Shown: one piece after another, positions 11,335 to 44,674 of the stretch
How positions within the stretch are numbered: position 1 is the stretch's first letter
Layout: every line of letters begins with the position of its first letter
DNA from: Thiotrichaceae bacterium UBA5859
Lineage (GTDB): Bacteria; Pseudomonadota; Gammaproteobacteria; UBA5859
NCBI GenBank assembly: GCA_002432655.1
Contig: DJFZ01000055.1
Span: forward strand, 1,643-65,642
Length of the DNA: 64,000 bases
Direction: 5' to 3'
Program-made: the position numbers and the translations under genes
Notes under the pieces: generated by a model
What the model was told of the DNA's origin: nothing
The model's input: the letters and a program-made list of their open reading frames with translations, nothing else
The model's database searches: none

Positions 11335-12249
11335 TTAATTCTCAAGAAAGCTGTTAAGGGCGCTGCTTAAGGTAGGTGCAATGTCGATCTTGTTGGTGCT
11401 GTGAGGAATTGTGTTTGTGGTAACAATCGGCGTCAATCCTTGTTCTGCAAAAACTTGATCCACGTCATCTGCGAATATGCCATGAACTGCAACGCAACCA
11501 ATATTTGTAATGTGTTGCCTTTTTAAGGCTTGAGCGCACGCAAGTATCGTGTGACCGCTGGAAATGATGTCGTCGACAATCAAAGCTGAATTTCGGCTGT
11601 ATTTAGACAGATTCGGCAGAGTAATTTTGACCTCACGATCGCCCACTCTGATTTTTTCAGCAATCACGAAATCATGCCCACTCAAAGTCGATAAGTCAGA
11701 GAGCCACTGTTCACTTTCTTTATCTGGGCCAACTAACAATAGATCCTGCGTATCAGAGAGAAAATCTGCCAAAGCGGCGGCACCATGTACTACCTTAGTC
11801 GGTACAGAATAGAGTTGAGACAACGAGTGGTAACGATGCAAATGGGGATCGACCGTCATCAACCAGTCAATATGAGGGTTAAGCAGCGAAGCAAAATATT
11901 GAGCGCTCAAAGCCTCTCCAGGATGGAAACAGGTATCCTGTCGCAGGTAACAAAGATAAGGTGCCACCAAACCAATTCTTCCAGCGCCAAGAGATCTTAA
12001 AGTGTCTAAAAGAAAAATAAGAGGCAAAAACTTTTCATCTGGACGTGACAGATCTGCTAGTACAATGCAATCACGATTCTCCACTGCTGTATCAACACGG
12101 ATGTAGGACTCTCCATCTGGAAATCGCCGATGTGACCATTGCCCTACATTCGCTCCCAATGACTGACAGAGTGACTGAGCCAGGGCATCAGAATGCATGG
12201 AGAATAGAATGGTGCCGCGGCTAGATGCGATCTTCATTGGATTATTCAA
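11335..12249 (-). CDS. Ribose-phosphate pyrophosphokinase-like phosphoribosyltransferase (Prs family).
   Basis: Contains RRFPDGESYIRV (Prs FxDGE motif) and the PRPP-binding loop ALIVDDIISSGHTIL. It overlaps the stop of the upstream phosphorylase-family gene by 8 nt. Confidence 0.75.
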   Translation of the reverse strand: MNNPMKIASSRGTILFSMHSDALAQSLCQSLGANVGQWSHRRFPDGESYIRVDTAVENRDCIVLADLSRPDEKFLPLIFLLDTLRSLGAGRIGLVAPYLCYLRQDTCFHPGEALSAQYFASLLNPHIDWLMTVDPHLHRYHSLSQLYSVPTKVVHGAAALADFLSDTQDLLLVGPDKESEQWLSDLSTLSGHDFVIAEKIRVGDREVKITLPNLSKYSRNSALIVDDIISSGHTILACAQALKRQHITNIGCVAVHGIFADDVDQVFAEQGLTPIVTTNTIPHSTNKIDIAPTLSSALNSFLEN

Positions 12250-13750
12250 TATGAAACAGATCCATATTAGCCTGATAGTAGCTTAACGCATAGGCCAATT
12301 CCCCTGGACTCTCGCTAAATAGTTCAAAGAGCGGATCGCCCTTTGATACTTGACAACCAATATTCACGCTGAGTCGTAAGCCTGCGGCAGGGTCAAAAGG
12401 TGCACCGGCAAGTTTCGCCAAACGAGCCAATCTTCGATTATCAATGCTGTGAATGATGCCGGAGCGAGCAGAGTGGATTGTCTGTCTATAGTGCGGCGAT
12501 GGCAATGGCTTCAAACCACCCTGAGCTGCTGCGATAGACTGGAATTTTGCCCAAGCTTGACCACTTTCTAAAATAGAACGCGCTTGATGCAAACCTGCCT
12601 CGTAACCAAAGTGGTAAGCCATGTCCAACAGATGTGCGGCTAGAAATAACGCACGCTCTGTTAAATCTGCCGGTGCATCTGCTTGACCTTTCAACACGGC
12701 AAGTAGATCTCGGGCTTCTTCTGCTGGGCCGATTCCAGCGCCAATTGGACGACTGCCATCAGTGATTAGGCAACGTACGTAGAGATCACAGGCTTTTCCC
12801 ACTTCAGTAAATAACCACGCTAATCGATCTGCATCTGCCTGGTTGCGTACCTTGGCAGTTTCGCCCACTGGAATGTCGATAATGGCATGAGTAGAGCCTG
12901 CCGCAATCTTTTTGGATAATACCGACGCAATTAGTTGGCCTTCCACATCGAGATCCAATGCCCGCTCGATGCGAATCATTAAATCATCTGCGGGGCTAAG
13001 GTTGACCGCCCCACCCCACGCTAAGCAAGCGTCCGTCTTAGCCACTACCTGCCGAATTTGATCGATGGTTAAATTAACATTCATCAGGGTGTCCATGGTG
13101 TCCGCCGTTCCAGAGGGTGAGGTAATAGAACGAGAAGAAGTTTTCGGTACCGTCAGGCCCGCAGCGCTGGCAATGGCCACCACAAGAGGTGTGGTACGAT
13201 TCCCTGGAAGGCCGCCAATACAGTGTTTATCGAATATGCGCTCTTTACTAGGCCACTCAATATGTTCACCACAGGCCACCATGGCCCGTGTCAGACTGAT
13301 AATCTCATCAAGATTGAGACGATCGCCGGCACACACGCTTAGAAAACTAGCGATTTCAATGTCACTATATTTATGGTCATTGATATCTACAATGATCTGA
13401 TCGATTTCTGAGCTATCCAACGCATGGCCATGAATTTTTTTACGTACTGCCCCCAGTGAGAGTACGATAGGTGCTTGGCTAATAACCAACATATCACCCT
13501 CACCTACGTCCAAACGCCGTTGGGCAATTCGGGACAATCCGATGTTACCGCTTGGTAACTTGTTGCTATCGACAATGTTTAAAGTAGCTATTAATTCTTT
13601 ATTATTTGTCGCCCTAATTAATATTCTAGAAGTGGCATTGAAGCCTTCTGCGCGGCAAACTGGGCAGTCCTCGCGCATATAAACCACGGGCTCCTGATGG
13701 GTATTAATGCCCATGGCGTATGCAAATAGATGTCTCCCATTTTTATCCAT
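12242..13750 (-). CDS. Thymidine phosphorylase family protein, long form with an N-terminal extension. This is the AMP-phosphorylase-like TIGR02645-type that pairs with a Prs-like gene.
   Basis: 502 aa. It carries the pyrimidine-nucleoside phosphorylase glycine-rich phosphate loop (DKHCIGGLPGNRTTPLVVAIASAAGLTVPK) and the SxxGTADTMD motif. Confidence 0.75.
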   Translation of the reverse strand: MDKNGRHLFAYAMGINTHQEPVVYMREDCPVCRAEGFNATSRILIRATNNKELIATLNIVDSNKLPSGNIGLSRIAQRRLDVGEGDMLVISQAPIVLSLGAVRKKIHGHALDSSEIDQIIVDINDHKYSDIEIASFLSVCAGDRLNLDEIISLTRAMVACGEHIEWPSKERIFDKHCIGGLPGNRTTPLVVAIASAAGLTVPKTSSRSITSPSGTADTMDTLMNVNLTIDQIRQVVAKTDACLAWGGAVNLSPADDLMIRIERALDLDVEGQLIASVLSKKIAAGSTHAIIDIPVGETAKVRNQADADRLAWLFTEVGKACDLYVRCLITDGSRPIGAGIGPAEEARDLLAVLKGQADAPADLTERALFLAAHLLDMAYHFGYEAGLHQARSILESGQAWAKFQSIAAAQGGLKPLPSPHYRQTIHSARSGIIHSIDNRRLARLAKLAGAPFDPAAGLRLSVNIGCQVSKGDPLFELFSESPGELAYALSYYQANMDLFHIE

Positions 13751-13907
13751 TAAATTCTATATACACCTCAATAGTGTGCGGTTTACTTATACGAATAGGC
13801 TGTCCCTAAATTCACATACTAAATTCTTCAATTGATGCAAATCAACCAAATAGTTCCTAAAGGGTGTCAGACTCAATATGAAATTATTTTTTAGAGGGAA
13901 CGCAAAA

Positions 13908-14351
13908 ATGAAACTTTCATACATCAAGTTAATGGCATCTTTTTTAATATCTACTTCGCTCTTTATGGCACCAACCATAAGTTTGGCAGAAAAAGCTGAA
14001 ATCTGCGGGTTGTGCGGTACGGAAATCACCGCAGGAAGTAACCTATTCGAACTACAATTCAAAGATGGCTCTACCCAGACCTACGGGTGTCCAGCCTGCG
14101 GTTTAACCATGATGAAAAGTCCAGAAGTGATCTCCGCTAAGACTATGGACTTTTTGTCTAGAAAAATGCTCGATGCAAAAAAAGCTTATTATCTAAAGGA
14201 TACCGACGTGGGATATTGCTGTGAACCACATTGGCTTTCCTTTGATAGCAAAGAAAATGCGGAAAAATTCGCCAAAGGATTCGGTGGAGAGGTGTTATCC
14301 TATCAACAGGCTATACAAGCAAAAAGCTTCCATGAAGAACATACTCATTAA
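13908..14351 (+). CDS. NosL-like copper-binding protein, secreted. It is an orphan, with no nos genes nearby.
   Basis: Signal peptide, then an EICGLCGTEI (E-C-x-x-CG) motif, then C-terminal FAKGFGGEVLSYQQAI (compare NosL GGrVLrFeEi). The start was placed at the second Met (13908), which has a GAGGG ribosome-binding site (RBS). ORF track 13878..14351. Confidence 0.5.
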   Translation: MKLSYIKLMASFLISTSLFMAPTISLAEKAEICGLCGTEITAGSNLFELQFKDGSTQTYGCPACGLTMMKSPEVISAKTMDFLSRKMLDAKKAYYLKDTDVGYCCEPHWLSFDSKENAEKFAKGFGGEVLSYQQAIQAKSFHEEHTH

Positions 14352-14387
14352 AACGCGTTGAACTAAAACTCATGTTGAATCGAACGC

Positions 14388-14416
14388 CCGCAGTGATAGT
14401 AAACAACACTGCGGGT
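14388..14416 (+). terminator. Hairpin downstream of the NosL-like gene (cccgcagtg...cactgcggg). Weak T-tract.
   Basis: A 9-bp perfect stem 35 nt after the stop. It lies in the convergent gap with the cytochrome c gene. Confidence 0.35.
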
Positions 14417-14530
14417 ATCGATATTCTGCGATTAGAGAAGTGCGTTTTAAATGGCATGACTACAAAACCCTGTTTGTAAGGGTTTCGCAATTGTGGCCAA
14501 GATGTAGTCAGTTTGATGGCGCTTCGCGAA

Positions 14531-14989
14531 TCAATATTTAGTCATGTGATTAATGTAGTTCACAAGATGCCACACATCTTCTTCTGTGAGTTGCGGATCC
14601 CAGGTGGGCATATGACCCCGACCATTCTTGATTTTCCAAGCTAGTGCACCATCTGTATCCAGATCATCTGGATTATCATGTTCCGGCTGTACCACTCGTT
14701 TAGCGGTGACCGAATTACTTTCATTCATTGGCCCATGGCACTTGACACAATTCTTTTTAAATAGCTCTTCGCCTTTCATGACAGATTTGCGTGTTTCGCG
14801 CACGGGATTCTGTGTGGCGATGGCTTCCGCAGGCGCCTTCCAGCGCTCTGGATAAGTGACAGTGTTAGCGGAATCTAGCGCCTTATTAGAGGGGGAATCG
14901 TGGCTATGATCCGTCCCGCCCGCTGCAAACAGTGCCGATGTAGGAACCATGATAGAAATAGCAAATGCTACTATTTTTTTTGATTTCAT
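14531..14989 (-). CDS. Secreted mono-haem c-type cytochrome.
   Basis: CVKCHGP haem-binding motif. N-terminal signal MKSKKIVAFAISIMVPTSALFAAGG. The start was moved to the Met at 14989, which is preceded by AGGAG. Confidence 0.75.
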   Translation of the reverse strand: MKSKKIVAFAISIMVPTSALFAAGGTDHSHDSPSNKALDSANTVTYPERWKAPAEAIATQNPVRETRKSVMKGEELFKKNCVKCHGPMNESNSVTAKRVVQPEHDNPDDLDTDGALAWKIKNGRGHMPTWDPQLTEEDVWHLVNYINHMTKY

Positions 14990-15335
14990 TTTGTACTCCA
15001 TCTCCTGATGAGGCATAGTTTGTCCTGAAGCAACTACTCCCCTCCTACTCATACATTAAAACCCACCCTTAACCTCACTCGCCAAGAGCCAGTCTCGGTA
15101 ACCACAAGCCAACACGTTTATAGAACGATTTACAAGCAGATTATCTCCCCACGTCTGATCGGCACGATTTGATCTTACGCAGATTTTTTCGAGTTTGTCG
15201 ATAGCCTAAGCATTTAGCTCGTTTGATTATAAGCACATCAGCGACGTTTAAATCTTCGTTAAACAGACTACTACTAGACGATATAAACCCGTGCGAGCCG
15301 CAATGAAACCCCTTGAGCTCGCACGGTTAACCTAC

Positions 15336-15839
15336 TTATTTTATTTCGATTTTTTTCTTCTTGGATTGTTCTGATTTTGGCAATCTAATGGTTAGCAAGC
15401 CATTCTTGCAGGCTGCTTCCACCTTATCTGCATCCACATAGTCCGGCAGAGTAAGTGTTCGAGAAAAAGATTCCTCTCGACGTTCTTTACGGTAGATCTC
15501 CCCCTCCTCTGACTCTTTTTCCTCAGTATGGCTGCCTCGTAGTGTTAAGGTGCGATCCCCCACCAACACCTCAATATTTTCGCCTTGCATACCCGGCACT
15601 TCTGCCTTCACGATAATTTCCTTATCTTTATCCACAATATCTACTCTCGGAGTAGAGCCCTCAATCAAGTGCAGCGGATCAGCGAAAATCGGTTCGTTGA
15701 ATAAATTTTGAATACTCCTTGGATACCACCACTGTTTTTCAGATTCTAATGTGTCAAATGGGCTGAATAGACGTGAATGTAACTTTCTAGGGATCACCCT
15801 CTTCGACGATGGGTCAGAATCAGTTGCTTTTTCACTCAT
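15336..15839 (-). CDS. Hsp20/alpha-crystallin family small heat-shock protein.
   Basis: Alpha-crystallin domain with ...IEVLVGDRTLTLRG... and the C-terminal GLLTIRLPK motif. Confidence 0.85.
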   Translation of the reverse strand: MSEKATDSDPSSKRVIPRKLHSRLFSPFDTLESEKQWWYPRSIQNLFNEPIFADPLHLIEGSTPRVDIVDKDKEIIVKAEVPGMQGENIEVLVGDRTLTLRGSHTEEKESEEGEIYRKERREESFSRTLTLPDYVDADKVEAACKNGLLTIRLPKSEQSKKKKIEIK

Positions 15840-16084
15840 AGTAAACTCCCTTTTATTTGTTTTACCGTCTGTGAAATATAACGTCGCTTAGCGCCAGAGA
15901 TTCTGATTTAGATCAAGCCACAAATCTAATATATTTAATTTTGGCAAGCATATTTATTTATAATAAATAAAGAAAAACCTGATAGGTTTCTATGCCCACA
16001 AAAAACCCATGTCGGTTTCTTGCGCATCCTGTGGTGACGAGTAAGATTGACACCAAACCAGTTAAAAAAGGACACTGAAAATCC

Positions 16085-18478
16085 ATGTTACTTGGCCCAG
16101 AGCAACTTCACCAAAATTGTGACCTAGAACAATACGGCTTCGAAACCACTGCTGAGCTGACGACTGAACAGCAGCTATTGGGTCAGAACAGAGCAGTTGA
16201 TGCGTTCAAATATTCCCTCAATGTTAAGGATGGTGGACACCACCTATTCGCAATGGGATTGTCAGCCGGTAGCCGCGTAAATATTGCGCTTAATCTGGTC
16301 ACAGAATTGGGTTCCAATCGACCCACCGCTCCAGATTGGTGCTATGTCTACAACTTTTCTCAACCCAATTCGCCCAACGCCCTTTCCCTAGAAGCAGGCA
16401 TGGGATGTCTATTTAAACACGATGTTGCTCAATTAGTAGAAGATCTGACGACCATGATTCCAGCAGCATTTGAAAGCGAAGAGTATCAGGGACGACGCCA
16501 AGCAATTGAGCATAGATTACAGGAACGGCAGGAAGAGGCTCTCAACGTTCTAGGCAAAAAGTCACGGGAGTTAAATGTGGAACTGATCTCCACTCCTTCC
16601 GGCTTCGCCTTTGCTCCGATTAAAGAAGGCCAAGCCATCTTGCCTGACGCCTTTCAAGCTCTTCCTGAAGCTGAACAAAAACAGATTGAAAGTACAATTA
16701 AACAGTTACAAAAAGAATTACAAGAAACCTTGCGTCAATTTCCTAGCTGGCAAAAAGAGACGCTACAAGAAATTCGCACCCTAAATCATGAGGTCACTTC
16801 TAGCGTTGTAGATAGCTTAATCGGTGAACTGCTGATTAAGTATGAAGACCATGAGGAAATTTACGAATATTTGAGTGATTTTAAAAACGATGTCGTGGAG
16901 CATAGCGCCAGCTTCTTGCATCGACCGGAGTCGGAAAACCCCTTGGTGGCCGCACCAGACTTTTCCCGTTACCAGGTAAATGTCCTCGTCGCTCAGCCAA
17001 GTGATCGATCTATACCCGTGATCTATGAAGATAACCCTAGTCTGCCAAATCTAGTAGGACGTATAGAACACGAAGCGCAATTTGGTACCCTAACCACTAA
17101 TCATACTCTCATCAAATCCGGCGCACTACATCGTGCAGTCGGTGGGTTTTTGATTTTAGAGGTGGAAAAACTACTCACTAAACTCATGGCTTGGGAAGGA
17201 CTAAAACGCAGCCTATCTTCAGGGCTTATTCATTTTGACTCGATTGAACGCAGTTATGGTTGGGCCACAACAATAGGTTTAGATCCTGAACCTATACCGC
17301 TAGACACAAAAGTTATTTTAGTAGGAGATCGGCGCTATTTTTATCTGCTATCTGAATACGATCCAGAATTTTCTTCGCTGTTTAAAGTAGTTGCTGACTT
17401 CGATGAAATCGTTCCACGCAGTGTAGAAAATAATCTTAAATTTCCTAATCTGATTGCCAAGATTGTGGCAGAGGAACAGTTACTTCCCTTCAATCGCAGA
17501 GCAGTGGCGCGCCTAAATGAATTTAGTGCGCGGATGGCAGAAGATGCAGAAAGACTGTCAGTTAATCGCGATAAAATCCGCGATCTAATGATTGAAGCCA
17601 ACTATATCGCACAGCAAAATAATCAGTCTGTCGTTGAAGACAGCAATATCAATGATGCTCGTCGGTCTGCCATGTTTAGACATGATCGAATTCGAGAACG
17701 AGTTCAGGAACAGATATTACGCGAGACCTTATTGATAGACACCTCCGGGGAAAAAATTGGTCAAATTAATGGGCTGGCGGTTTATAGCTTAGGGCAAATG
17801 ATGTTTGGCAAACCTTCCCGAATTAGTGCCAGAGTTCGGCTGGGCAACGGTAACGTTTTAGATATTGAACGCAAAGCTGAATTGGGTGGCCCTACGCACA
17901 CTAAAGGGGTGATGATACTTTCAAGCTTTTTGGCGTCAAGATACGCTGCAGAAGCGCCTTTATCACTGTCGGCTAGTTTAGTCTTTGAACAATCCTATGG
18001 TGGGGTCGATGGTGATAGCGCCTCTTCCACTGAACTATATGCGCTCATGTCGGCATTAAGTGGTTTACCAATTCGTCAATCCTTTGCTGTGACAGGTTCA
18101 GTCAACCAGTTTGGCGACGTCCAAGCGATTGGGGGTGTGAATGAAAAAATAGAAGGATTTTTCGATATTTGCCAAACTCGAGGGCTAACTGGTGATCAGG
18201 GGGTGATTATTCCATTGGCGAATGTCAAAAACCTGATGCTTCGTGAAGATCTAGTGCAAGCTGTTCGTGATGAGCAGTTTCATATCCACGCGGTGCAACA
18301 TATTGATGAGGGCATCGAAATCTTAACCGGTATTCCGGCCGGTGAAGAGATAGGTGATAACGCATTTCCAGAAGGGTCAGTCAATGCGCTGATCATGGAA
18401 AAATTAAAAAGACTACAAGAGAAGAAAAAATCGATGCAAAAAAATGGTACAGATAATTCTAACCAGGAGAGTGAATGA
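16085..18478 (+). CDS. Lon-like protease homologue, YcbZ/LonC (COG1067) type. Degenerate AAA-like domain plus S16 Ser-Lys protease domain.
   Basis: The C-terminal half is collinear with E. coli YcbZ (RETLLIDTSGEKIGQINGLAVY..., IERKAELGGPTHTKGVMIL, SYGGVDGDSASSTELYALMSALSG, GGVNEKIEGFFDICQ). The candidate Walker A GLSAGSR lacks the Lys. It is divergent from Hsp20. Confidence 0.8.
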   Translation: MLLGPEQLHQNCDLEQYGFETTAELTTEQQLLGQNRAVDAFKYSLNVKDGGHHLFAMGLSAGSRVNIALNLVTELGSNRPTAPDWCYVYNFSQPNSPNALSLEAGMGCLFKHDVAQLVEDLTTMIPAAFESEEYQGRRQAIEHRLQERQEEALNVLGKKSRELNVELISTPSGFAFAPIKEGQAILPDAFQALPEAEQKQIESTIKQLQKELQETLRQFPSWQKETLQEIRTLNHEVTSSVVDSLIGELLIKYEDHEEIYEYLSDFKNDVVEHSASFLHRPESENPLVAAPDFSRYQVNVLVAQPSDRSIPVIYEDNPSLPNLVGRIEHEAQFGTLTTNHTLIKSGALHRAVGGFLILEVEKLLTKLMAWEGLKRSLSSGLIHFDSIERSYGWATTIGLDPEPIPLDTKVILVGDRRYFYLLSEYDPEFSSLFKVVADFDEIVPRSVENNLKFPNLIAKIVAEEQLLPFNRRAVARLNEFSARMAEDAERLSVNRDKIRDLMIEANYIAQQNNQSVVEDSNINDARRSAMFRHDRIRERVQEQILRETLLIDTSGEKIGQINGLAVYSLGQMMFGKPSRISARVRLGNGNVLDIERKAELGGPTHTKGVMILSSFLASRYAAEAPLSLSASLVFEQSYGGVDGDSASSTELYALMSALSGLPIRQSFAVTGSVNQFGDVQAIGGVNEKIEGFFDICQTRGLTGDQGVIIPLANVKNLMLREDLVQAVRDEQFHIHAVQHIDEGIEILTGIPAGEEIGDNAFPEGSVNALIMEKLKRLQEKKKSMQKNGTDNSNQESE

Positions 18479-19323
18479 TGATGACTTCTGAGTTGTCCGG
18501 TCTACCCAGGCAGATAGCACTAGCACTTGATGCGACGCCGGAAAGTATTCGGGTTTTGGATAGAGTGGCAGAAATTGCCTCAATTCTCGAAGCACGATTG
18601 GATGCTGTTTTTATAGAAGACGAAGCATTGTTGAGCTTAAGCGAATATCCTTTTTCTGAAGAGATTAGCCTCTACTCTCCCCGGCAACCGCTACAAAAAA
18701 CTCGCTTGGAGCAGGAATACCGGGCGCTCTCCAAGCAGCTGCAAAAGGCATTGGAGCAGAGTGCGAATAGATGGAAGTTACACTGGCAATTTAGAACTGT
18801 CCGCGCAAATTTAAACCAAGCATTGGAGCAGATCTCAAGTGAGATAGATCTAATCACATTGATGACAACGTGCCGAGGGCTCCAACGTTCCTATCAGTTT
18901 GAACACCATAGTGCCACTATCATGAGTCGCTTTCCCGGTTCTTGCATTATCTTACCTAGGCACATCACTGCGGGTAAGGAAGTGATGGTATTGATAGAAT
19001 CCGAGGAAAGTCGTCTCCCTCTCATGGCATTAGCGCAACGTTTTGCCAGCGCTGGTGAAAAACCGATGGTAGTTTTAGTACCCACCACTGAACAGCACCC
19101 TAAGCCGCGAGAAGAACTGTACCGACAGAGCCTTCTAGGGAAAAAGATCGACACGATACAATTAATTCCCATTGACACTACAGAGCCCAAAAAGTTAGCT
19201 AAGATGTTAGAAAATCGAAGTGTCCATATGTTCATAACTTCTAAATCAGACACTATTTTTTCGGTCGAAACTAAAATAGAAATGGCAGAAAAGTTTAAAG
19301 CGCCCCTGTATTTACTAGGTTAG
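18475..19323 (+). CDS. Hypothetical protein, 282 aa, translationally coupled to the Lon-like gene.
   Basis: Its start codon overlaps the Lon-like stop (TGATGATGA). Coding potential is clean and no motif is recognisable. Confidence 0.5.
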   Translation: MMMTSELSGLPRQIALALDATPESIRVLDRVAEIASILEARLDAVFIEDEALLSLSEYPFSEEISLYSPRQPLQKTRLEQEYRALSKQLQKALEQSANRWKLHWQFRTVRANLNQALEQISSEIDLITLMTTCRGLQRSYQFEHHSATIMSRFPGSCIILPRHITAGKEVMVLIESEESRLPLMALAQRFASAGEKPMVVLVPTTEQHPKPREELYRQSLLGKKIDTIQLIPIDTTEPKKLAKMLENRSVHMFITSKSDTIFSVETKIEMAEKFKAPLYLLG

Positions 19324-21007: not shown

Positions 21008-21520
21008 CTACTCAGATGAGGACGCTAATTTTAACAGTCTCTCAACGATGGCAGGATCTGGGGTAGGTGCGCGATATCTAGAATTCATAATAGAAAGTAT
21101 GGAATATATATTTTCTAATTTTTCTTCGCTGATATCTTCCAATTCTAAGCCGAGTTTCTCCGCTTCTTCGTGCACCCTGATGTATATCTTACTAAGCGCG
21201 AGATGGTTAATTTCATCTTCAGTTTGTCCCGGAAGAGTCTCAAATAGTAACCACATTTTTAAAGTGGTTGTGTCTGGGAACTGCGGGCAATATGGTAGTA
21301 AATCTTCACAAATTTGGTTTAATGTCCTCGATTTAGGTGGACGATCTTCTCGTAACCAAATTCTGCCACTTGATTTGCTGGCGCGATAACGTTCGGCAAT
21401 TGCCAACGCTCGACCATATTCTAATGGGGGCATATCCGGCACACCGTCAAGCAAGCTATTGAATCTGTTTGAAAAGCCATCTATCTGGCTGGTTTTCTTG
21501 GAGTACTTTGATTGGCTCAT
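21008..21520 (-). CDS. Hypothetical protein, 170 aa. Orphan gene inside an AT-rich islet.
   Basis: Clean ORF bounded by AT-rich DNA on both sides, with two hairpins downstream. No motif is recognised. Confidence 0.45.
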   Translation of the reverse strand: MSQSKYSKKTSQIDGFSNRFNSLLDGVPDMPPLEYGRALAIAERYRASKSSGRIWLREDRPPKSRTLNQICEDLLPYCPQFPDTTTLKMWLLFETLPGQTEDEINHLALSKIYIRVHEEAEKLGLELEDISEEKLENIYSILSIMNSRYRAPTPDPAIVERLLKLASSSE

Positions 21521-21687: not shown

Positions 21688-23559
21688 ATGAAAACCATTC
21701 AAATGAAAATTAAAACCAGTCATTGGTTACAGATGTTGCTCTTTATTCCCGCTATTCTATCGTTCGGGACAGTATTCTTGTTTTCGTGGTGGGAGCACGA
21801 TAAGACCGTCCAGGAGATGATTCATCACGAAGGTGAGCTATTGATGCGACAACTGACAGTCGCATCTCGATTCGCCTTGACAGCGAATGATCCTGCTCGG
21901 CTCAAAGAAATTGTGGCGTCATTGGCCGACGCGCCGGAGATCCGCAGTATTAGGCTACTCAACCACAACAATCGAGCTATTTTTGACTACGAGAGCGACT
22001 TTATTTACGACGATTCCTTTTACGAATATTCCCAACTCATTCTTGATGAATCTGTTGAACCCGTCGCCTTGCTAGGCGCGATTAAGTTGCAGATGTCTAA
22101 ACAATATTATCTTGACAACAAAAATATACTACTCACCTCACTGATCCCCATAATTTTGATCTATTCCTTTGTACTAATGCTTGTGGGCCTCTGGCACCGG
22201 AGAACAATTGCCACTCCTATCGATGCGGCAATCCGCAGCATACATCTCATGAAGCATGGTACAGCTATCTCTGTTACCGATAAACTTGGTGGCGAAATCG
22301 GACATCTCATTAAAAATATAAATGCCCTTTCGGAACATTTACAGAAAAGTAAAGAGCAAGACCAAAAACAAAAGCGCGCGCTCAAGTCCCAAGTTAATAT
22401 GTTAGCTCGTTCACAACAGGAAACCCTAGATGCCCTAAACAGTAACGAAGGCTTCTTGAATATTCTCAATGAGGAAATCAGAGGGCCAGTAAATACGATT
22501 AAGTTAATGTTGAATATGATAGCGAATACGAAAAGCGCGACCTTAAAAGAAAGATACCTACACTCTGCAGAAAAAAATGCGGACTATTTAGAAGCGCTGG
22601 TAGAAGAAGCAAGTGAATTTACCCGGCTGGCGTCAGGACAGTTTGATTTTAATGCGCAACCCTGCGATCCCCATATGGTGATCGAAGAATGTGTCGAGTC
22701 GCTGAATGAACTGTCTAAAGAAAAAAAAGTACGTTTGACTATAGAACCTTTGCAATTACAGATAATTGATAATCACCTAATTCATACCGATCCTAATTAC
22801 CTTGCTCAGGTAATAATCAACCTCTTGCATGGCGCTATCATGCATCCGAATATCGAACAAATTGTGTTGAAACAACCATGGCTCCAGTCTACAGCAGATA
22901 AGGTATCCCTAAATCTGACAATAGAAATGTTCGGTGGTAAAGCGTTAAATCCCGCGCAGCTGGATCAAAGCGTCACTATAACAGTTGCTAAACGCATTCT
23001 TGAGAACCTTTCAGGTGACTTGACTGTAGCATCAGAACATGGGAACCATCTCTTAATGTTTAATTTGGAGATTCCGGTGGATGTTATACCAATTATTGAA
23101 CCGGAGCGGACAATCGCCACAGGTGAACAGCCCAATCAGGCGGACATGCTTTTTTTTTCCCACGACTTGCGAGAAGCAAATTTAATCAAATCACAGTTTA
23201 TTAGTTCAACTCAAATGTTGGAGACTTCTAATGAATTTGATCGCTGCGGAGAAATATATCTAAAGTATAAAACTTCTATTGTTATATTAGAAATCTCAGC
23301 AGACCCTTTTAGCCAAGGTGCCGCAGCTGAAATCAGAACCATAGAAAAACAATTTGATATCGAACCTTGCTTACTGGTGGCATTATATACCGATCATACC
23401 GATTCTAATATTGTGATAGATACGCCCCAACAAGCATTATTTGACTTAGTATTGCCGAAACCGGATGGCATTCTCACTTTGTACAGGTTGCTCGCCGATC
23501 TTGGCTCTGCGAAGATGGATGTCGATATCTATCTGGACTCTCTTTGTTTGCCAGATTGA
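21688..23559 (+). CDS. Histidine-kinase-like sensor with a degenerate H-box (phospho-acceptor His replaced by Glu) and a degenerate C-terminal receiver-like domain.
   Basis: Two N-terminal TM segments and a HAMP-like linker (GGEIGHLIKNINALSEHLQKSKE). The dimerisation box LNILNEEIRGPVNTI aligns to SHELRTPLNAI with H replaced by E. The ATPase region lacks clear N, G1 and G2 boxes. The C-terminal alpha/beta domain has ILEISADP where a receiver would have LDxxMP. Confidence 0.6.
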   Translation: MKTIQMKIKTSHWLQMLLFIPAILSFGTVFLFSWWEHDKTVQEMIHHEGELLMRQLTVASRFALTANDPARLKEIVASLADAPEIRSIRLLNHNNRAIFDYESDFIYDDSFYEYSQLILDESVEPVALLGAIKLQMSKQYYLDNKNILLTSLIPIILIYSFVLMLVGLWHRRTIATPIDAAIRSIHLMKHGTAISVTDKLGGEIGHLIKNINALSEHLQKSKEQDQKQKRALKSQVNMLARSQQETLDALNSNEGFLNILNEEIRGPVNTIKLMLNMIANTKSATLKERYLHSAEKNADYLEALVEEASEFTRLASGQFDFNAQPCDPHMVIEECVESLNELSKEKKVRLTIEPLQLQIIDNHLIHTDPNYLAQVIINLLHGAIMHPNIEQIVLKQPWLQSTADKVSLNLTIEMFGGKALNPAQLDQSVTITVAKRILENLSGDLTVASEHGNHLLMFNLEIPVDVIPIIEPERTIATGEQPNQADMLFFSHDLREANLIKSQFISSTQMLETSNEFDRCGEIYLKYKTSIVILEISADPFSQGAAAEIRTIEKQFDIEPCLLVALYTDHTDSNIVIDTPQQALFDLVLPKPDGILTLYRLLADLGSAKMDVDIYLDSLCLPD

Positions 23560-37899: not shown

Positions 37900-40446
37900 A
37901 TGCGTGACGCGCATCGACCGAACATCATCGTCATCGGCAACGGCATGGTCGGCCAAAAATTACTGGAAAATCTAGTAGAAGCTGAAGTACATAAGCAGTT
38001 TAATATTCTGACTTTTTCTGAGGAACCTCGCCCAGCGTACGATAGAGTGGCGCTAAGTTCTTTTTTTTCAGGCAACCGTGCAGAGGATTTGTCTCTCGTA
38101 CCCGAGGGATTCTTTCAACAGAACGGTATCGGCTTACAACTTTCAGAAGCCGTCACTGAAATTGATAGGGCTAAAAAAGAAGTGTGTACCGAGGCCGGGA
38201 ATCGCTATACCTACGAGCTATTGATTCTTGCCACCGGATCTTATCCATTCGTGCCACCGTTACCGGGGCGTGATCGAAAACACTGCTATGTCTATCGCAC
38301 GATCGAAGATCTTGAAGCAATTGCTGCTTGCGGCAAACAGAGTCAGATCGGCGTCGTGGTTGGCGGCGGCCTATTGGGTTTAGAAGCCGCTAAGGCACTA
38401 AAAGACATGGATCTAGAAACCCATGTGGTAGAGTTCGCACCCAGACTCATGGCGGTACAGGTAGATGAAATCGGTGGACAGTTATTACGCAGTAAAATTG
38501 AAGCCTTAGGCGTACAGGTCCACACACAGAAAAACTCAAAAGAAATTGTGGATGGTAATCAACATCTGCATCGCATTAATTTCGTTGACGGCGAACATCT
38601 TGAAACCGACATGATTGTGTTTTCCGCGGGGATCCGACCTCAGGATGCATTGGCGCGCCAATGCGACTTAGCTTTGGGAGAGCGAGGCGGTATCGTCATC
38701 AATGACCATTGCCAAACCTCCGATACCTCTATTTACGCCATTGGTGAATGCGCCTTATGGCAAAATCGTATTTTTGGGCTGGTGGCACCCGGCTATCAAA
38801 TGGCAAAGGTAGCAGCAGAACATATCGCCGGCGGATCGGCTGCTTTTACTGGTGCAGATATGAGTACCAAATTAAAGCTATTGGGCGTGGATGTGGCCAG
38901 CGTTGGCGACGCTCACGCTCGTACGGAAGGTGCGCGTTGTTTCAATTATTTGGATGAAATTAAAGGTGTCTACAAAAAGGTGGTAGTAGACGCTAAACGC
39001 GAACGTCTGCTCGGTGCCGTGCTAGTAGGAGATGCTGAGGAATACGGTACACTCCTACAAATGACACTGAATGACATGCCGTTGCCGGAAAATGTCGATT
39101 CTTTGATTTTGCCACACTATGATGGCAGCGGCATGACAGGGCTGGGCGTCGACGCTCTGCCGGAATCCGCGCAAATATGCTCCTGTAACAACGTCAGTAA
39201 AGGAGATATCTGCCAGGCAGTGGGTTCGGGCGCAACCACACTTGCGGCCATTAAAGAGGCCACCAAAGCCTCTACTACCTGCGGTGGCTGCACCGCTCTA
39301 GTCGGTCAAGTATTAAATGCGGAATTACTCAAATTAGGTGTCGAGGTAAACACAGATATCTGTGAGCACTTCCCTCACACTCGTCAGGAGTTGTATCACA
39401 TAGTACGTATCAACAACATCCAAACATTCGCTGAATTGATAGAAAAACACGGCAAAGGTAGGGGCTGTGATATCTGCAAACCCGCGGTAGCTTCTATTCT
39501 GGCTTCTTGTTGGAATCAATATATTCTAAAACCGGAACATAGCCAGTTACAGGATACAAACGATAGATTCTTAGCCAATATGCAAAAAAACGGTACCTAC
39601 TCGGTAGTGCCTCGTGTGCCAGGTGGCGAAATCACCCCTGACAAACTCATTGCCATTGGTGAAGTGGCAAAAAAATACGACTTGTATACGAAAATAACCG
39701 GTGGTCAAAGAATAGATTTGTTCGGTGCCAGGCTCGAGCAGTTGCCCGCCATATGGGAAGAACTTATCGCCGCTGGATTTGAAAGCGGTCATGCCTATGG
39801 TAAAGCAATGCGTACGGTGAAATCCTGTGTAGGCAGTACTTGGTGTCGGTATGGCGTGCAAGACAGCGTAAGCATGGCGATTCAAATCGAAAATCGTTAT
39901 CGCGGCGTGCGCTCTCCCCATAAGTTAAAGCTAGCCGTATCCGGATGTACTCGAGAATGCGCTGAAGCACAGAGTAAAGATGTCGGTGTGATCGCAACTG
40001 AAAAAGGGTGGAATCTCTATGTCTGCGGCAACGGCGGCATGAAGCCGAGACATGCCGATTTACTGGCATCGGATCTCGACGATCAGACTTTGATCCAGTA
40101 CATCGATCGCTTTTTGATGTTTTATATACGCACGGCCGATCGTCTACAGCGCACTTCCGTCTGGTTAGACAATCTAGAAGGCGGTATTGACTATGTCCGA
40201 CAGGTAGTCTGTGAAGATTCTTTATCCATCGCCACAGAATTAGAAAACGACATGCAGTCTCTAATAGATAGCTATGTGTGTGAATGGCGCTACACTGTCG
40301 AAAATGAAGAAGAACGTAAGCGATTCTCTCATTTTGTAAATAGTTCTGAACCGGATAGCGGTGTTCAATTCGTCAAAGAGCGCGGGCAAATTCGCCCGGC
40401 TTCGACAGATGAGCTCCAGCAAATCCCTACGCAGGCAATAAATTAG
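37900..40446 (+). CDS. nirB: NAD(P)H-dependent nitrite reductase large subunit.
   Basis: 848 aa. N-terminal FAD/NAD Rossmann domain (IIVIGNGMVG), BFD-like [2Fe-2S] region and sirohaem/4Fe-4S Cys cluster (CVGSTWCRYG..., SGCTRECAEA). Confidence 0.9.
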   Translation: MRDAHRPNIIVIGNGMVGQKLLENLVEAEVHKQFNILTFSEEPRPAYDRVALSSFFSGNRAEDLSLVPEGFFQQNGIGLQLSEAVTEIDRAKKEVCTEAGNRYTYELLILATGSYPFVPPLPGRDRKHCYVYRTIEDLEAIAACGKQSQIGVVVGGGLLGLEAAKALKDMDLETHVVEFAPRLMAVQVDEIGGQLLRSKIEALGVQVHTQKNSKEIVDGNQHLHRINFVDGEHLETDMIVFSAGIRPQDALARQCDLALGERGGIVINDHCQTSDTSIYAIGECALWQNRIFGLVAPGYQMAKVAAEHIAGGSAAFTGADMSTKLKLLGVDVASVGDAHARTEGARCFNYLDEIKGVYKKVVVDAKRERLLGAVLVGDAEEYGTLLQMTLNDMPLPENVDSLILPHYDGSGMTGLGVDALPESAQICSCNNVSKGDICQAVGSGATTLAAIKEATKASTTCGGCTALVGQVLNAELLKLGVEVNTDICEHFPHTRQELYHIVRINNIQTFAELIEKHGKGRGCDICKPAVASILASCWNQYILKPEHSQLQDTNDRFLANMQKNGTYSVVPRVPGGEITPDKLIAIGEVAKKYDLYTKITGGQRIDLFGARLEQLPAIWEELIAAGFESGHAYGKAMRTVKSCVGSTWCRYGVQDSVSMAIQIENRYRGVRSPHKLKLAVSGCTRECAEAQSKDVGVIATEKGWNLYVCGNGGMKPRHADLLASDLDDQTLIQYIDRFLMFYIRTADRLQRTSVWLDNLEGGIDYVRQVVCEDSLSIATELENDMQSLIDSYVCEWRYTVENEEERKRFSHFVNSSEPDSGVQFVKERGQIRPASTDELQQIPTQAIN

Positions 40447-40558
40447 AGCCTGTTCCTGTTTGAATATTGCGCTGACTATTTTTGACCAACGGCACTCAAC
40501 AGCATGTATTTTGTTGAATGAATAGTTTGGCGTTAACCAATTTAGGAGCCGTCAACCC

Positions 40559-40900
40559 ATGACATTAAAGTGGACTCAAGTTTGTCTTCTTGAAGAGATT
40601 TTACCGAACACCGGTTGTTGCGCGTTGTATAATCAAATGCAGATCGCAATATTTCGGGTAGATAGTTCGGAACAACTATATGCGGTACAAAATTATGATC
40701 CCCTTGGCGAAGCGAATGTCTTATCGCGAGGCATTGTAGGCGATGTCAATGGAGAATTAGTTGTGGCTTCACCCCTGTATAAACATCACTACTCATTAAA
40801 AACAGGAAAATGTTTGGAAGACGAAACGGTTCAAATTCAAACCTATCCTATCCGAGTGGAAAATGGCCGAGTGGAACTCGGTACGGTTTCTTCACATTAA
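40559..40900 (+). CDS. nirD: Nitrite reductase small subunit (Rieske-like).
   Basis: 113 aa. NirD-like beta-sandwich pattern, directly downstream of nirB. Confidence 0.85.
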   Translation: MTLKWTQVCLLEEILPNTGCCALYNQMQIAIFRVDSSEQLYAVQNYDPLGEANVLSRGIVGDVNGELVVASPLYKHHYSLKTGKCLEDETVQIQTYPIRVENGRVELGTVSSH

Positions 40901-40921
40901 TACACTACTTAGGCAGTTTAA

Positions 40922-43900
40922 ATGAGTCATTTCCTAGATAGATTACAGTTTTTCAAAAAAAAACAAGGACAATTTGCGGACGGCCATGGTGAGATCAGCA
41001 ATGAAGATCGCTCCTGGGAAGATGGTTATCGTCAACGCTGGCAGCACGATAAAATTGTCCGCTCTACCCATGGTGTCAATTGCACCGGATCCTGTAGCTG
41101 GAAAATATACGTTAAAAACGGCCTAGTGACTTGGGAGACTCAACAGACGGATTATCCGCGTACTCGCCCAGACTTACCCAACCACGAACCGAGAGGATGT
41201 CCCCGGGGTGCCAGCTATTCTTGGTACATATATAGTGCTAATCGACTCAAATATCCATTGATTCGCAAAAAGCTGGTGCAATTATGGCGGGCCGCTAGGC
41301 AAACTCACGATCCCGTAGATGCCTGGGAATCTATCGTAGAAGACAGCGAGAAAGCGGCAACCTATAAGCAACAGAGAGGTTTAGGCGGTTTTGTCCGGGC
41401 AACTTGGGATGAAGTGAATGAAATCATCGCCGCTGCCAATACCTACACAATTAAACAGTACGGCCCTGATCGAGTATGTGGTTTTTCACCGATACCTGCC
41501 ATGTCGATGGTGTCCTACGCAGCCGGTACTCGCTATTTGTCCTTAATTGGCGGTACTTGTTTGAGCTTTTATGACTGGTATTGCGATTTACCCCCTAGCT
41601 CTCCTCAAGTGTGGGGAGAACAAACCGATGTGCCCGAATCTGCCGATTGGTATAACTCCAATTTTTTGATCTTATGGGGTTCAAATGTGCCGCAAACTCG
41701 AACACCGGATGCACATTTCTATGCCGAAGTACGTTACAAAGGCACCAAAAGCGTGGTCATTACTCCCGACTTTTCAGAGGCATCAAAGTTTGCCGACCTC
41801 TGGCTTGCGCCTAAACAGGGAACGGATGCTGCGCTCGCAATGGCCTTTGGGCATGTGATCTTAAAAGAGTTTCACGTAGACAATCCGAGTCCATACTTCT
41901 TGAATTATTGTCGTCAATATACGGATATGCCGCTGTTGGTCAAATTGGTGCCTCACGAAGACGGCGCCTTTAAAGCAGATCGTTTTCTTCGCGCTTCAGA
42001 TTTTAACGATGCGTTGGGTGAGGAGAACAACCCCGAGTGGAAAACAGTGGGCTATGACGAACATTCAAAGCAATTTTGTGTGCCCACTGGATCAATAGGT
42101 TTTCGCTGGGGGGAGCAAGGTAAATGGAATATTGAAGAGAAGGACGCCACTGGTCAAGCCACCCAGTTATCTCTGACTCTACTCGACCAACGAGATGAGG
42201 TGGCTTCCGTTGCATTCCCCTACTTTGGCGGAAACGAACGTGAACACTTTCAACATACGGCACACAACGATGTATTGTATCGCAACATTCCTACGAAGAA
42301 AGTGACTTTGTCTACTGGCGAAGAAGTCTTAGTTGCCACTGTCTATGATCTATTATTGGCTCACTACGGTATTGATCGCGGTTTAGGTGGCGACAATGTC
42401 GCGACAAGTTACGACGATGACATTCCTTGCACACCAGCGTGGCAACATAAAATTACTGGCGTTAAATCTCAAGATGTGATCACCGTAGCCCGTCAGTTTG
42501 CCGAGACCGCCCATAAAACTAAAGGGCGCTCCATGATTATCGTGGGTGCGGGGCTGAACCACTGGTATCACAACGATATGAACTATCGCGGCTTAATAAA
42601 TATGCTGTTGATGTGCGGCTGCGTGGGCCAAACAGGCGGTGGCTGGTCGCATTATGTGGGCCAGGAAAAACTTCGACCACAAACCGGATGGACAGCGCTC
42701 GCGTTCGCTCTCGATTGGAATCGTCCACCCAGACAGATGAATGGCACCTCTTTTTTCTATAATCATACCAGTCAATGGCGTTACGAAAAGGTGGGTATTG
42801 AAGAGATCCTTTCGCCGTTAGCGGATAAAGAAAAATATTCCGGTAATGTTTTAGACTATAACATTCGTGCCGAGCGTATGGGTTGGTTACCAAGCGCACC
42901 ACAACTGAATACTAATCCGTTGAATTTGGCTGCTCGAGCGGAAGAGAATAACTTATCAGTAGAAGAGCACCTATGTACCGAACTGAAGTCTGAACAGATC
43001 TCAATGGCTTGTGAAGATCCGGAAGATCCACAAAATTTTCCCCGTAATTTATTTGTCTGGCGTTCTAATATTTTGGGTTCAAGTGGTAAAGGTCACGAAT
43101 ATTTCTTACATCACTTGTTAGGTACCAAACATGGACTGTTGGGCAAAGAACTGGGTGACGACACGAACTTAAAACCAGAAGAGGTAAATTGGCATGAGCA
43201 AGGTGCCACCGGGAAGCTGGATCTGTTGGTCACTTTAGACTTTCGTATGTCTACCACCTGCCTCTATTCAGACATCGTGTTACCCACAGCCAGTTGGTAT
43301 GAAAAGGATGATTTAAACACCTCCGACATGCACCCTTTTATTCATCCATTATCTGCAGCAGTAGATCCAGTATGGGAATCGAGAACTGACTGGGATATCT
43401 ACAAAGGAATAGCGAACAAATTTTCTGAAGTCTGTGTCGGCCACTTAGGCAAAGAAAAAGATGTGGTATTGACCCCGCTGATGCACGATTCCCCTGGTGA
43501 AATTGCCCAGCCCTTTGAGGTAAAAGATTGGAAAAAAGGAGATTGCGATCCCATTCCTGGGAAAACCATGCCGCAGATTAGCGTCATCGAACGCGACTAT
43601 CCAAACACTTATAAAAAGTTCACCTCTCTTGGACCTTTGATGGAGTCCTTAGGCAACGGTGGCAAAGGCATTCATTGGGATACAAAAACGGAAGTAGAAT
43701 TCCTCGGCAAATTGAATCATCCCGTCTTAGATGAGGGTGTTTCTAAAGGACGGCCACAAATTGAAAGCGCCATTGACGCCGCTGAGGTAATCTTGTCTTT
43801 AGCACCAGAAACCAATGGTCAAGTCGCCGTAAAAGCCTGGGAATCCCTAGGTAAAATCACCGGCCGCCAACACACTCATTTGGCAGAACCAAAACAAGAC

Positions 43901-44674
43901 GAAAAAATACGTTTTCGAGACATACAAGCGCAACCGAGAAAAATTATCTCTTCCCCCATCTGGAGTGGGCTCGAAGATGAACATGTCAGTTACAATGCAG
44001 GATACACAAACGTGCATGAGCTGATCCCCTGGCGCACCCTAACCGGAAGGCAACAGTTCTATTTGGATCACCAATGGATATTGGCTTTTGGTGAAGGCTT
44101 TTGCCAATATCGTCCACCAATAGATACCAAGACTGTGAACCCGATATTAAATAAGACGCCTAATGGCAATCGAGAAATTGCGTTAAATTGGATTACGCCT
44201 CACCAAAAATGGGGTATCCACAGCACCTATACTGAAAACCTGCTGATGCTTACTCTTTCAAGAGGTGGTCCCATTATTTGGTTGAGTGAGGTGGATGCAG
44301 CAAAAGTCGACATTGCTGATAATGATTGGGTAGAAGTGTTTAACGTCAACGGGGCGTTAACCGCGCGCGCTGTGGTCAGCCAACGGGTAAATGAAGGCAT
44401 GACGATGATGTATCACGCCCAGGAACGTATCGTCAATAATCCAGGCGCTGAAACCACCGGCACCAGAGGCGGTATTCACAACTCGGTCACTAGAGTGGTA
44501 CTCAAACCCACCCACATGATAGGCGCCTACGCGCAGTTCAGTTATGGTTTTAACTATTACGGTACTGTCGGTTCTAATCGAGATGAATTTGTTATTGTGA
44601 GAAAAATGAATGAAATTGATTGGCTCGACGGTGAAAGTCAACCCTACAAGCAAACAGACGGAGCAGTAGTTTAA
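40922..44674 (+). CDS. narG: Respiratory nitrate reductase alpha subunit.
   Basis: 1250 aa. NarG N-terminal HGVNCTGSCSW Fe-S motif and Mo-bisMGD domains along the full length. It starts 21 bp after the nirD stop. Confidence 0.95.
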   Translation: MSHFLDRLQFFKKKQGQFADGHGEISNEDRSWEDGYRQRWQHDKIVRSTHGVNCTGSCSWKIYVKNGLVTWETQQTDYPRTRPDLPNHEPRGCPRGASYSWYIYSANRLKYPLIRKKLVQLWRAARQTHDPVDAWESIVEDSEKAATYKQQRGLGGFVRATWDEVNEIIAAANTYTIKQYGPDRVCGFSPIPAMSMVSYAAGTRYLSLIGGTCLSFYDWYCDLPPSSPQVWGEQTDVPESADWYNSNFLILWGSNVPQTRTPDAHFYAEVRYKGTKSVVITPDFSEASKFADLWLAPKQGTDAALAMAFGHVILKEFHVDNPSPYFLNYCRQYTDMPLLVKLVPHEDGAFKADRFLRASDFNDALGEENNPEWKTVGYDEHSKQFCVPTGSIGFRWGEQGKWNIEEKDATGQATQLSLTLLDQRDEVASVAFPYFGGNEREHFQHTAHNDVLYRNIPTKKVTLSTGEEVLVATVYDLLLAHYGIDRGLGGDNVATSYDDDIPCTPAWQHKITGVKSQDVITVARQFAETAHKTKGRSMIIVGAGLNHWYHNDMNYRGLINMLLMCGCVGQTGGGWSHYVGQEKLRPQTGWTALAFALDWNRPPRQMNGTSFFYNHTSQWRYEKVGIEEILSPLADKEKYSGNVLDYNIRAERMGWLPSAPQLNTNPLNLAARAEENNLSVEEHLCTELKSEQISMACEDPEDPQNFPRNLFVWRSNILGSSGKGHEYFLHHLLGTKHGLLGKELGDDTNLKPEEVNWHEQGATGKLDLLVTLDFRMSTTCLYSDIVLPTASWYEKDDLNTSDMHPFIHPLSAAVDPVWESRTDWDIYKGIANKFSEVCVGHLGKEKDVVLTPLMHDSPGEIAQPFEVKDWKKGDCDPIPGKTMPQISVIERDYPNTYKKFTSLGPLMESLGNGGKGIHWDTKTEVEFLGKLNHPVLDEGVSKGRPQIESAIDAAEVILSLAPETNGQVAVKAWESLGKITGRQHTHLAEPKQDEKIRFRDIQAQPRKIISSPIWSGLEDEHVSYNAGYTNVHELIPWRTLTGRQQFYLDHQWILAFGEGFCQYRPPIDTKTVNPILNKTPNGNREIALNWITPHQKWGIHSTYTENLLMLTLSRGGPIIWLSEVDAAKVDIADNDWVEVFNVNGALTARAVVSQRVNEGMTMMYHAQERIVNNPGAETTGTRGGIHNSVTRVVLKPTHMIGAYAQFSYGFNYYGTVGSNRDEFVIVRKMNEIDWLDGESQPYKQTDGAVV

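Follow-up and report, generated by a model that had tools for sequence, protein, structure and literature searches.

A LonC-type protease gene translationally coupled to a divergent universal stress protein gene: a two-gene unit that recurs across phyla

What does a Lon-like protease with degenerate nucleotide motifs do together with a second protein whose start codon overlaps its own stop? The question is raised by a 64,000-nt stretch of Thiotrichaceae bacterium UBA5859 (contig DJFZ01000055.1), here called the window, whose positions serve as coordinates and in which the open reading frames (ORFs) of interest occupy 15336–19323. An earlier note, made from the letters alone, described a LonC-type Lon homologue, a coupled partner of 282 aa without recognisable domain and a divergent gene for the small heat-shock protein Hsp20. 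The protease gene (797 aa, 16085–18478, + strand) encodes a full-length bona fide LonC of MEROPS S16 subfamily C, as judged by Pfam, phmmer and an AlphaFold2 (AF2) model searched with Foldseek. Its partner (282 aa, 18475–19323, + strand) is, by its predicted fold and its relatives, a divergent tandem-type universal stress protein (Usp) of a LonC-associated subfamily. Universal stress proteins are very widespread, and for most of them no biochemical function is known; for LonC proteases there are solved structures but, to our knowledge, neither a physiological role nor a regulator has been established. Together the two genes make up a conserved module that appears to be previously undescribed, even though each belongs to a known family.

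The junction between the two genes (18465–18478, + strand) is tight. The TGA stop codon of the LonC gene (18476–18478; codons ...GAA TGA) shares the four nucleotides ATGA (18475–18478) with the first ATG of the Usp gene (18475–18477), and a Shine-Dalgarno sequence, AGGAG (18465–18469), lies 5 nt upstream of the Usp start, still within the 3' end of the LonC gene. If the alternative in-frame ATG at 18478 were used, the overlap would be only 1 nt. The coupled partner proposed in the earlier note is real.

We surveyed 80 LonC loci from genome representatives, which encode proteins 43–51% identical to the window LonC; even the closest of them reaches only about 51%. In all, GTDB representatives contain at least 583 LonC relatives. 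Represented among the 80 loci are Chloroflexota, Chlorobiaceae, Acidobacteriota, Alpha-, Beta- and Gammaproteobacteria, Desulfobacterota, Bacteroidota, Planctomycetes, Trueperaceae and Salinivenus. A partner-family ORF lies directly downstream on the same strand, starting −10 to +314 nt from the LonC stop, in 61 of the 77 loci with room downstream. Absence or displacement of the partner in relatives, which the earlier note had named as the observation that would speak against the pair, is therefore not what we see, and the same adjacency in so many independent loci is far beyond chance. Stop and start codons overlap in 53 of 67 LonC–Usp pairs (79%), 33 of them through ATGA or GTGA, and 7 more pairs lie within 20 nt of each other. 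The reverse test gave the same picture: all ten partner-family proteins examined are encoded directly 3' of a LonC gene with an overlap of 4–11 nt, including a marginal family member (E 6e-6) and one from a metagenome-assembled genome labelled Bathyarchaeota.

The unit consists of these two genes and no third. All-against-all clustering of the ORFs within ±4 kb of LonC in about 85 loci revealed no family present in more than 5 of them, and the largest neighbour family (5 loci) reflects synteny within Chlorobiaceae. The remaining 16 of the 77 loci (∼21%) lack the partner and have an unrelated gene downstream. These partner-less LonCs are interspersed among partner-bearing ones, which suggests that an accessory gene was repeatedly lost or moved elsewhere. 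The partner diverges much faster than the protease (mean identity 29% versus 52%); when relatives are compared in pairs, the identities for the two proteins correlate with r = 0.77, a value confounded by their shared phylogeny. A literature search, incomplete in its coverage, found no paper that links a LonC or other Lon-like protease to a Usp partner, and no accessory protein for LonC is mentioned in PMC3391209 or in the abstract of PMC13069640.

Two kinds of variation on the downstream side deserve mention. In two of the partner-less loci (L086 and L088), a same-strand ORF that starts with MYKILFVCTGNICRSPTA begins 7 nt past the LonC stop and carries a CX5R(S/T) motif of the low-molecular-weight phosphatase/ArsC type; judged by this motif, it may be an alternative coupled partner. 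In locus L006 (2396–3812), two single-domain Usp genes come after the LonC–Usp pair, with a gene for a ribosome hibernation factor (S30AE) between them, which is a dormancy-type context.

The identity of the partner is less obvious than that of the protease. On its own, the window protein has no match in Pfam, NCBIfam, PADLOC or the sequences of the Protein Data Bank (PDB), and the Pfam Usp profile PF00582 does not match it at E ≤ 0.01. A database search returned one orthologue with 74% identity and remote relatives with 18–26% identity, several of which were already annotated with PF00582. A profile built from these relatives retrieved 48 proteins in a word-indexed search, mostly named ‘universal stress protein’, and 1630 cluster representatives at E ≤ 1e-30 in an exhaustive search; the best 150 of these 1630 are mostly 270–295 aa long and match nearly the whole profile. 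PF00582 is matched by 31 of 43 aligned relatives, with a best E-value of 5e-22. As the window member is not among them, its assignment to the Usps rests on transitive homology and on fold.

The predicted fold is that of two successive Usp domains. The AF2 model (pLDDT 83, pTM 0.82) contains two beta-alpha-beta units of the HUP-class Usp type, forms a compact, confidently predicted tandem alpha/beta structure and has no conserved disordered tail. When it was compared with the PDB by Foldseek, the top 22 matches were all tandem Usps with a probability of 1.0, among them TTHA0350 (3ab8, E 3.5e-11), Rv2623, UspE/YdaA and the Archaeoglobus protein 3loq, with E-values from 1e-9 to 3.5e-11. The description of the partner as lacking a recognisable domain thus holds for sequence profiles and fails at the level of fold, where the Usp-like relationship considered in the earlier note is borne out. 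Like the partner, the solved tandem Usps TTHA0350, Rv2623 (3cis, 2jax) and UspE/YdaA (5cb0, 4r2j) carry two Usp domains in a chain of about 280 aa; they superimpose on the window protein with a TM-score of about 0.6 at an identity of 11–15%. We know of no solved tandem Usp that has been reported as protease-linked.

The partner also differs from the solved tandem Usps by a family-specific segment that follows strand 2, [FY][VIL]ED-x2-LL-x6-PF. In the window protein this signature, F46-IEDEALLSLSEYPF-60 (18610–18654, + strand), is located at the end of strand 2 in Usp domain 1. Within the family no stretch is better conserved: its columns are invariant or at least 90% conserved in three alignments (one of them of 65 pairs). 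It is confidently modelled, with a pLDDT of 85–93. We consider the segment a candidate interface or ligand site. Further conserved positions are found in ALDAS (D19) and at W104, R110-G and D125.

The nucleotide-binding motif of the Usps has decayed in the window protein. At 18862–18906 (+ strand) it reads M130-x2-C133-x9-E143-H144, where relatives have G-x2-G-x9-G-[ST], the ATP-binding motif of the UspFG/MJ0577 class; the latter motif is kept in domain 1 of 31 of 65 paired relatives, several of which read, for example, LGKAGWS...RLGSTA. Among cultured relatives, Prosthecochloris ethylica N3 (L050) has a pair with its motifs intact. Residues 133–143 also form the sole internal low-confidence loop of the model. 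Nothing like the motif is found in domain 2 of the window partner, and because it is missing from both domains, the protein belongs to the Usps of the non-ATP-binding kind. Some lineages may have a strongly diverged second domain or none at all: the partner profile matches in two separate pieces, or its first match extends over domain 1 only (profile up to ∼130–143), in L040 (Methylotuvimicrobium sp. KM1), L032, L049, L062, L072, L076, L084 and L085.

The protease can be placed with confidence. Pfam matches LonC_helical (residues 84–117), AAA_32 (310–440), LonB_AAA-LID (468–532) and Lon_C (642–745); the S16 protease domain is matched by PF05362, and a PF20437 match speaks for the helical hairpin extension. 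In a phmmer search of solved structures, the LonC of Meiothermus taiwanensis (MtaLonC, 4fwd) came first (E 7e-85), with archaeal LonB (3k1j, E 8e-23) and LonA far behind. The AF2 model (pLDDT 83.6) likewise has the cryo-EM structures of MtaLonC, 8k91_A and 8k8v_A, as its top Foldseek matches (TM 0.70/0.77 over 767 columns). MEROPS listed eight LonC members as of a 2022 review (PMC9569914).

The intact Ser-Lys protease domain read from the sequence earlier stands up to alignment. The catalytic serine lies in the pair Asp644-Ser645 (GDSAS; 18014–18019, + strand), and GDSA[ST] is present in 84 of 84 aligned sequences; aspartate instead of proline before the catalytic serine separates LonB and LonC from LonA (PMC9569914). 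The catalytic lysine, Lys688 (VNEKIEG; 18146–18148, + strand), is equally constant, with xN[EQD]K[IV]EG in all 84. Both LonC-specific insertions are present (18170–18265, + strand), namely C696-QTR-GL-T-G703, which fits CX3GLX[G/E], and L723-VQ-A-V727, which fits phi-X2-A-phi; both consensus patterns are taken from PMC3391209.

The ATPase part of the protein is degenerate. The Walker-A remnant G58-LSAGSRV-65 (16256–16279, + strand) stands at the site of GxxGxGK[ST] and has lost the P-loop glycines and lysine, in line with the earlier reading of GLSAGSR as no convincing Walker A. In an alignment with 83 LonC relatives, most keep GPxGTGK[HYRQ][ST] at this site, so the P-loop of the window LonC is truly degenerate, beyond the norm of its clade; loss of the glycines together with the lysine is shared only with the close relative L001. 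The Walker-B remnant GGFLILEVE (residues 353–361; 17141–17167, + strand) lacks the Asp-Glu of the canonical hhhhDE; relatives have GGYLILDA, and GYLILDA is the MtaLonC counterpart of Walker B (PMC3391209). Between the two remnants lies the helical hairpin extension (approximately residues 106–272; 16400–16900, + strand), a hallmark of LonC, modelled as helices 106–129, 132–162, 195–252 and 257–272. This extension sits in the AAA-like alpha/beta subdomain at the place where LonB has its membrane anchor (PMC9569914). Judged by its motifs, the window LonC would have no ATPase activity and would degrade unfolded substrates without ATP. In its arrangement the LonC–Usp pair of the window is typical of its clade, and the decay of both nucleotide sites is its one unusual feature.

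We compared the window LonC with its best-studied relatives. It shares the full-length domain order of MtaLonC (4fw9, 4fwd, 8k8v, 8k91): a P-loop subdomain, the helical hairpin extension, an AAA-like alpha/beta part with LID and the S16 protease domain. The Asp-Ser/Lys dyad, both LonC insertions and a Walker B without the catalytic glutamate are also common to the two. They are about 27% identical; of the 65 aa by which the window protein exceeds MtaLonC, most belong to the hairpin extension. MtaLonC keeps the glycine and lysine of the P-loop (GPPSLGKHE), whereas the window LonC has lost both. The gene contexts differ as well: a MtaLonC-type gene (encoding a Meiothermus protein 95% identical to the PDB sequence) is followed 47 nt on, on the same strand, by an S41/Tricorn_C1 peptidase gene (L091, 7291–8301), and the Thermus LonC homologues have a convergent penicillin amidase gene downstream and no Usp. 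The characterised LonC may thus have a different co-expressed neighbour. As for its biochemistry, MtaLonC degrades only unfolded substrates (PMC3391209); according to the abstract of PMC13069640, ATP-gamma-S and phosphate affect the assembly of its ring, and high temperature shifts it to a chaperone-active heptamer.

Other Lon-like proteins are more distant. In the AAA_32/LID/protease core, residues 123–540 of the putative Lon-like protease YcbZ (b0955) of Escherichia coli are 39% identical to residues 327–747 of the window LonC, catalytic motifs included. YcbZ lacks about 200 N-terminal residues and has no LonC_helical or LID match in Pfam. The number of extra residues given for the window protein in the earlier note was right, but they are the P-loop subdomain and helical hairpin that are standard for LonC and not a novel extension. 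The neighbours of ycbZ are fabA downstream and matP upstream, with no Usp. Archaeal LonB (TonLonB, 3k1j) has AAA_32, a LonB-type LID and the Asp-Ser protease domain in common with the window LonC, but it is a membrane-anchored, active ATPase, whereas the window LonC has the helical hairpin (PMC9569914 for the hairpin) and dead ATPase motifs.

How might the two proteins work together? The two-gene unit that recurs across phyla hints that this Usp subfamily serves as a subunit or regulator of LonC. We think it somewhat probable that the pair forms a two-subunit stress protease, in which the coupled, dedicated tandem Usp is an accessory or regulatory subunit. The persistence across phyla of coupling between just two genes leads us to infer a stoichiometric complex, with the two proteins probably made in fixed proportion and probably acting as one. 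Because MtaLonC degrades only unfolded proteins and the partner is predicted to be compact, the partner is likelier to be such a subunit than a substrate. LonC would act as an ATP-independent, self-compartmentalising protease with the chaperone-like holding activity of its characterised homologue, and the Usp would dock on the LonC ring and modulate its assembly state or the access of substrates. A regulator linked to assembly or to nucleotide is plausible because the MtaLonC ring responds to ATP-gamma-S and phosphate. The ancestral module would probably sense nucleotide or energy state without hydrolysing ATP, since many relatives keep the Usp ATP motif (31 of 65) and most the LonC P-loop lysine while lacking the Walker-B glutamate. 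Both sites have decayed in the window lineage, and control here would therefore be nucleotide-independent or purely structural.

Several observations weigh against this two-subunit protease. Among the 65 pairs, LonCs without the P-loop lysine do not go together with Usps without the glycine motif (odds ratio 2.1, Fisher p = 0.19); co-degeneration of the two sites was thus considered and dropped, and a shared nucleotide mechanism finds no support in these data. MtaLonC and Thermus LonC work alone in vitro, and no Usp lies beside the gene in their genomes. As the biochemically studied Thermaceae LonCs and about 21% of the close LonC relatives are without the partner, it is not obligatory for LonC function. 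Moreover, Usp genes are common in stress islands, and co-regulation could explain part of the association.

A stricter version of the proposal, which we put forward only tentatively, is an obligate hetero-oligomeric protease whose ATP-independent proteolytic chamber is gated by the tandem Usp as a sensor of nucleotide or stress. If it were correct, the whole Usp subfamily would gain its first defined biochemical role, and the physiological form of most LonCs would be unstudied, because the sole characterised LonC comes from a partner-less branch. Conclusions based on MtaLonC may in any case not describe the majority form of LonC, because no partner is present in its lineage. The near-constant coupling of one Usp subfamily to LonC across many phyla opens two poorly understood families to experiment.

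We weighed four other explanations for the locus, none of which is favoured by the data. The pair might be a matter of co-expression only, the Usp acting independently and sharing a promoter and coupling with LonC in response to the same stress or dormancy, with no interaction between the proteins. Usp genes often do cluster with stress genes, as in L006 with its two more Usps and hibernation factor and in the window with its Hsp20; LonC is active alone in vitro (PMC3391209), and partner-less loci exist. But a LonC-type Usp followed LonC in every one of the ten look-ups and stood nowhere else among the members examined, its signature segment is distinct from generic Usps, nothing else in the neighbourhood is conserved, and the overlap persists in most pairs across phyla despite a mean partner identity of about 29%. 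Proteins whose gene order survives such divergence typically interact, which counts against co-expression as the whole explanation, and we regard it as unlikely. A role as inhibitor or immunity-like factor, one of those suggested in the earlier note, would have the Usp keep a harmful protease inactive until a phage or stress trigger, as in defence or toxin-antitoxin systems. PADLOC, however, matched neither LonC nor the partner nor Hsp20. The flanks are varied, ordinary chromosomal genes without a mobile-element or defence-island signature, and a LonC without partner is natural to many genomes and has been expressed for biochemical work without toxicity. Lon-like proteins are indeed part of defence systems, and tight coupling is typical of toxin-antidote pairs; yet BrxL, the Lon-like protein of BREX, is only a remote fold match of LonC (TM ∼0.2). 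An immunity-like or defence role finds no support here, and we consider this explanation improbable.

It is very improbable, too, that LonC has the Usp as its dedicated substrate or pro-protein, with a proteolytic switch setting the Usp level. Protease and substrate are co-expressed in some regulatory circuits, and the partner evolves faster than LonC, but its compact predicted fold without a conserved disordered tail does not suit an enzyme family whose member MtaLonC attacks only proteins that are unfolded or unstructured (PMC3391209), and coupled 1:1 synthesis of enzyme and substrate would be wasteful. A further possibility is that Hsp20, LonC and Usp form a heat-shock triad run from one bidirectional region. 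The gene for Hsp20, an alpha-crystallin small heat-shock protein of 167 aa (15336–15839, − strand; PF00011, E 9e-25), is divergent from LonC across a spacer of 245 nt (15840–16084) with 35% GC, against 44.7% for the whole window. This arrangement is kept in L001 together with a 19-nt block of the spacer, and the chaperone-active heptamer that MtaLonC forms at high temperature, described in the abstract of PMC13069640, would fit a heat-shock role. Yet of about 85 loci, just three (the window, L001 and L067) have Hsp20 close to LonC, one of them in a different orientation, and no sigma-32, CIRCE or HAIR consensus was recognised by eye in the intergenic region. A triad is therefore quite improbable, and Hsp20 is best regarded as a lineage-specific neighbour outside the conserved unit. 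The divergent Hsp20 gene and AT-rich control region of the earlier note are present, but they are a feature of this lineage.

The intergenic region contains two candidate control elements. The conserved block is an imperfect palindrome with a TTCTGATTTAGATCAAG core (15899–15917), identified by alignment with the 74–89%-identical L001, where it is kept despite divergence of the remaining spacer. It matched no recognised regulator site and may be an operator shared by the two genes or a promoter element of Hsp20. A candidate sigma-70-type promoter of the LonC–Usp operon, TTGCGC-N16-TAAGAT (16020–16047, + strand), was read by eye, and both hexamers are kept in L001; a stricter consensus scan did not pick it up. 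The consensus promoter scan found fewer promoter-like sites than in shuffled sequences, and a consensus scan found no convincing terminator 3' of the Usp gene. Across the whole window, Rfam gave nothing at gathering score and only chance-level matches at E ≤ 1, with no RNA thermometer.

The wider surroundings contain genes of several kinds. A few kilobases upstream of the LonC pair, at 11335–13750 (− strand), lie two genes that overlap by 8 nt, one PRPP-synthetase-like (304 aa) and one thymidine/AMP-phosphorylase-like (502 aa). Genes of the phosphoribosyltransferase fold (PF00156) also lie a few kilobases from LonC in L001 (920–3263), L003 (2046–2708), L096 (862–1548), L094 (7622–8563) and L092 (10594–11538). 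Such genes thus recur at several unrelated loci, though in only about 4–5 of the 85 in the clustering, which may be chance or a loose association with stress or nucleotide salvage. Between the phosphorylase pair and Hsp20 (13878–15052) are genes for a NosL-like lipoprotein (157 aa) and a cbb3-type mono-haem cytochrome c (173 aa), in the same order in L001. Just past a Na+/H+ exchanger gene, two further ORFs keep their order in L001: one of 170 aa without Pfam match (21008–21520, − strand) and one for a 623-aa protein (21688–23559, + strand) that has a HisKA domain only, with no recognisable ATPase domain. Finally, the region 37900–44674 encodes a NirB-type assimilatory nitrite reductase (848 aa) and a NarG-like alpha subunit of respiratory nitrate reductase (1250 aa), from which we read the organism as nitrate-respiring.

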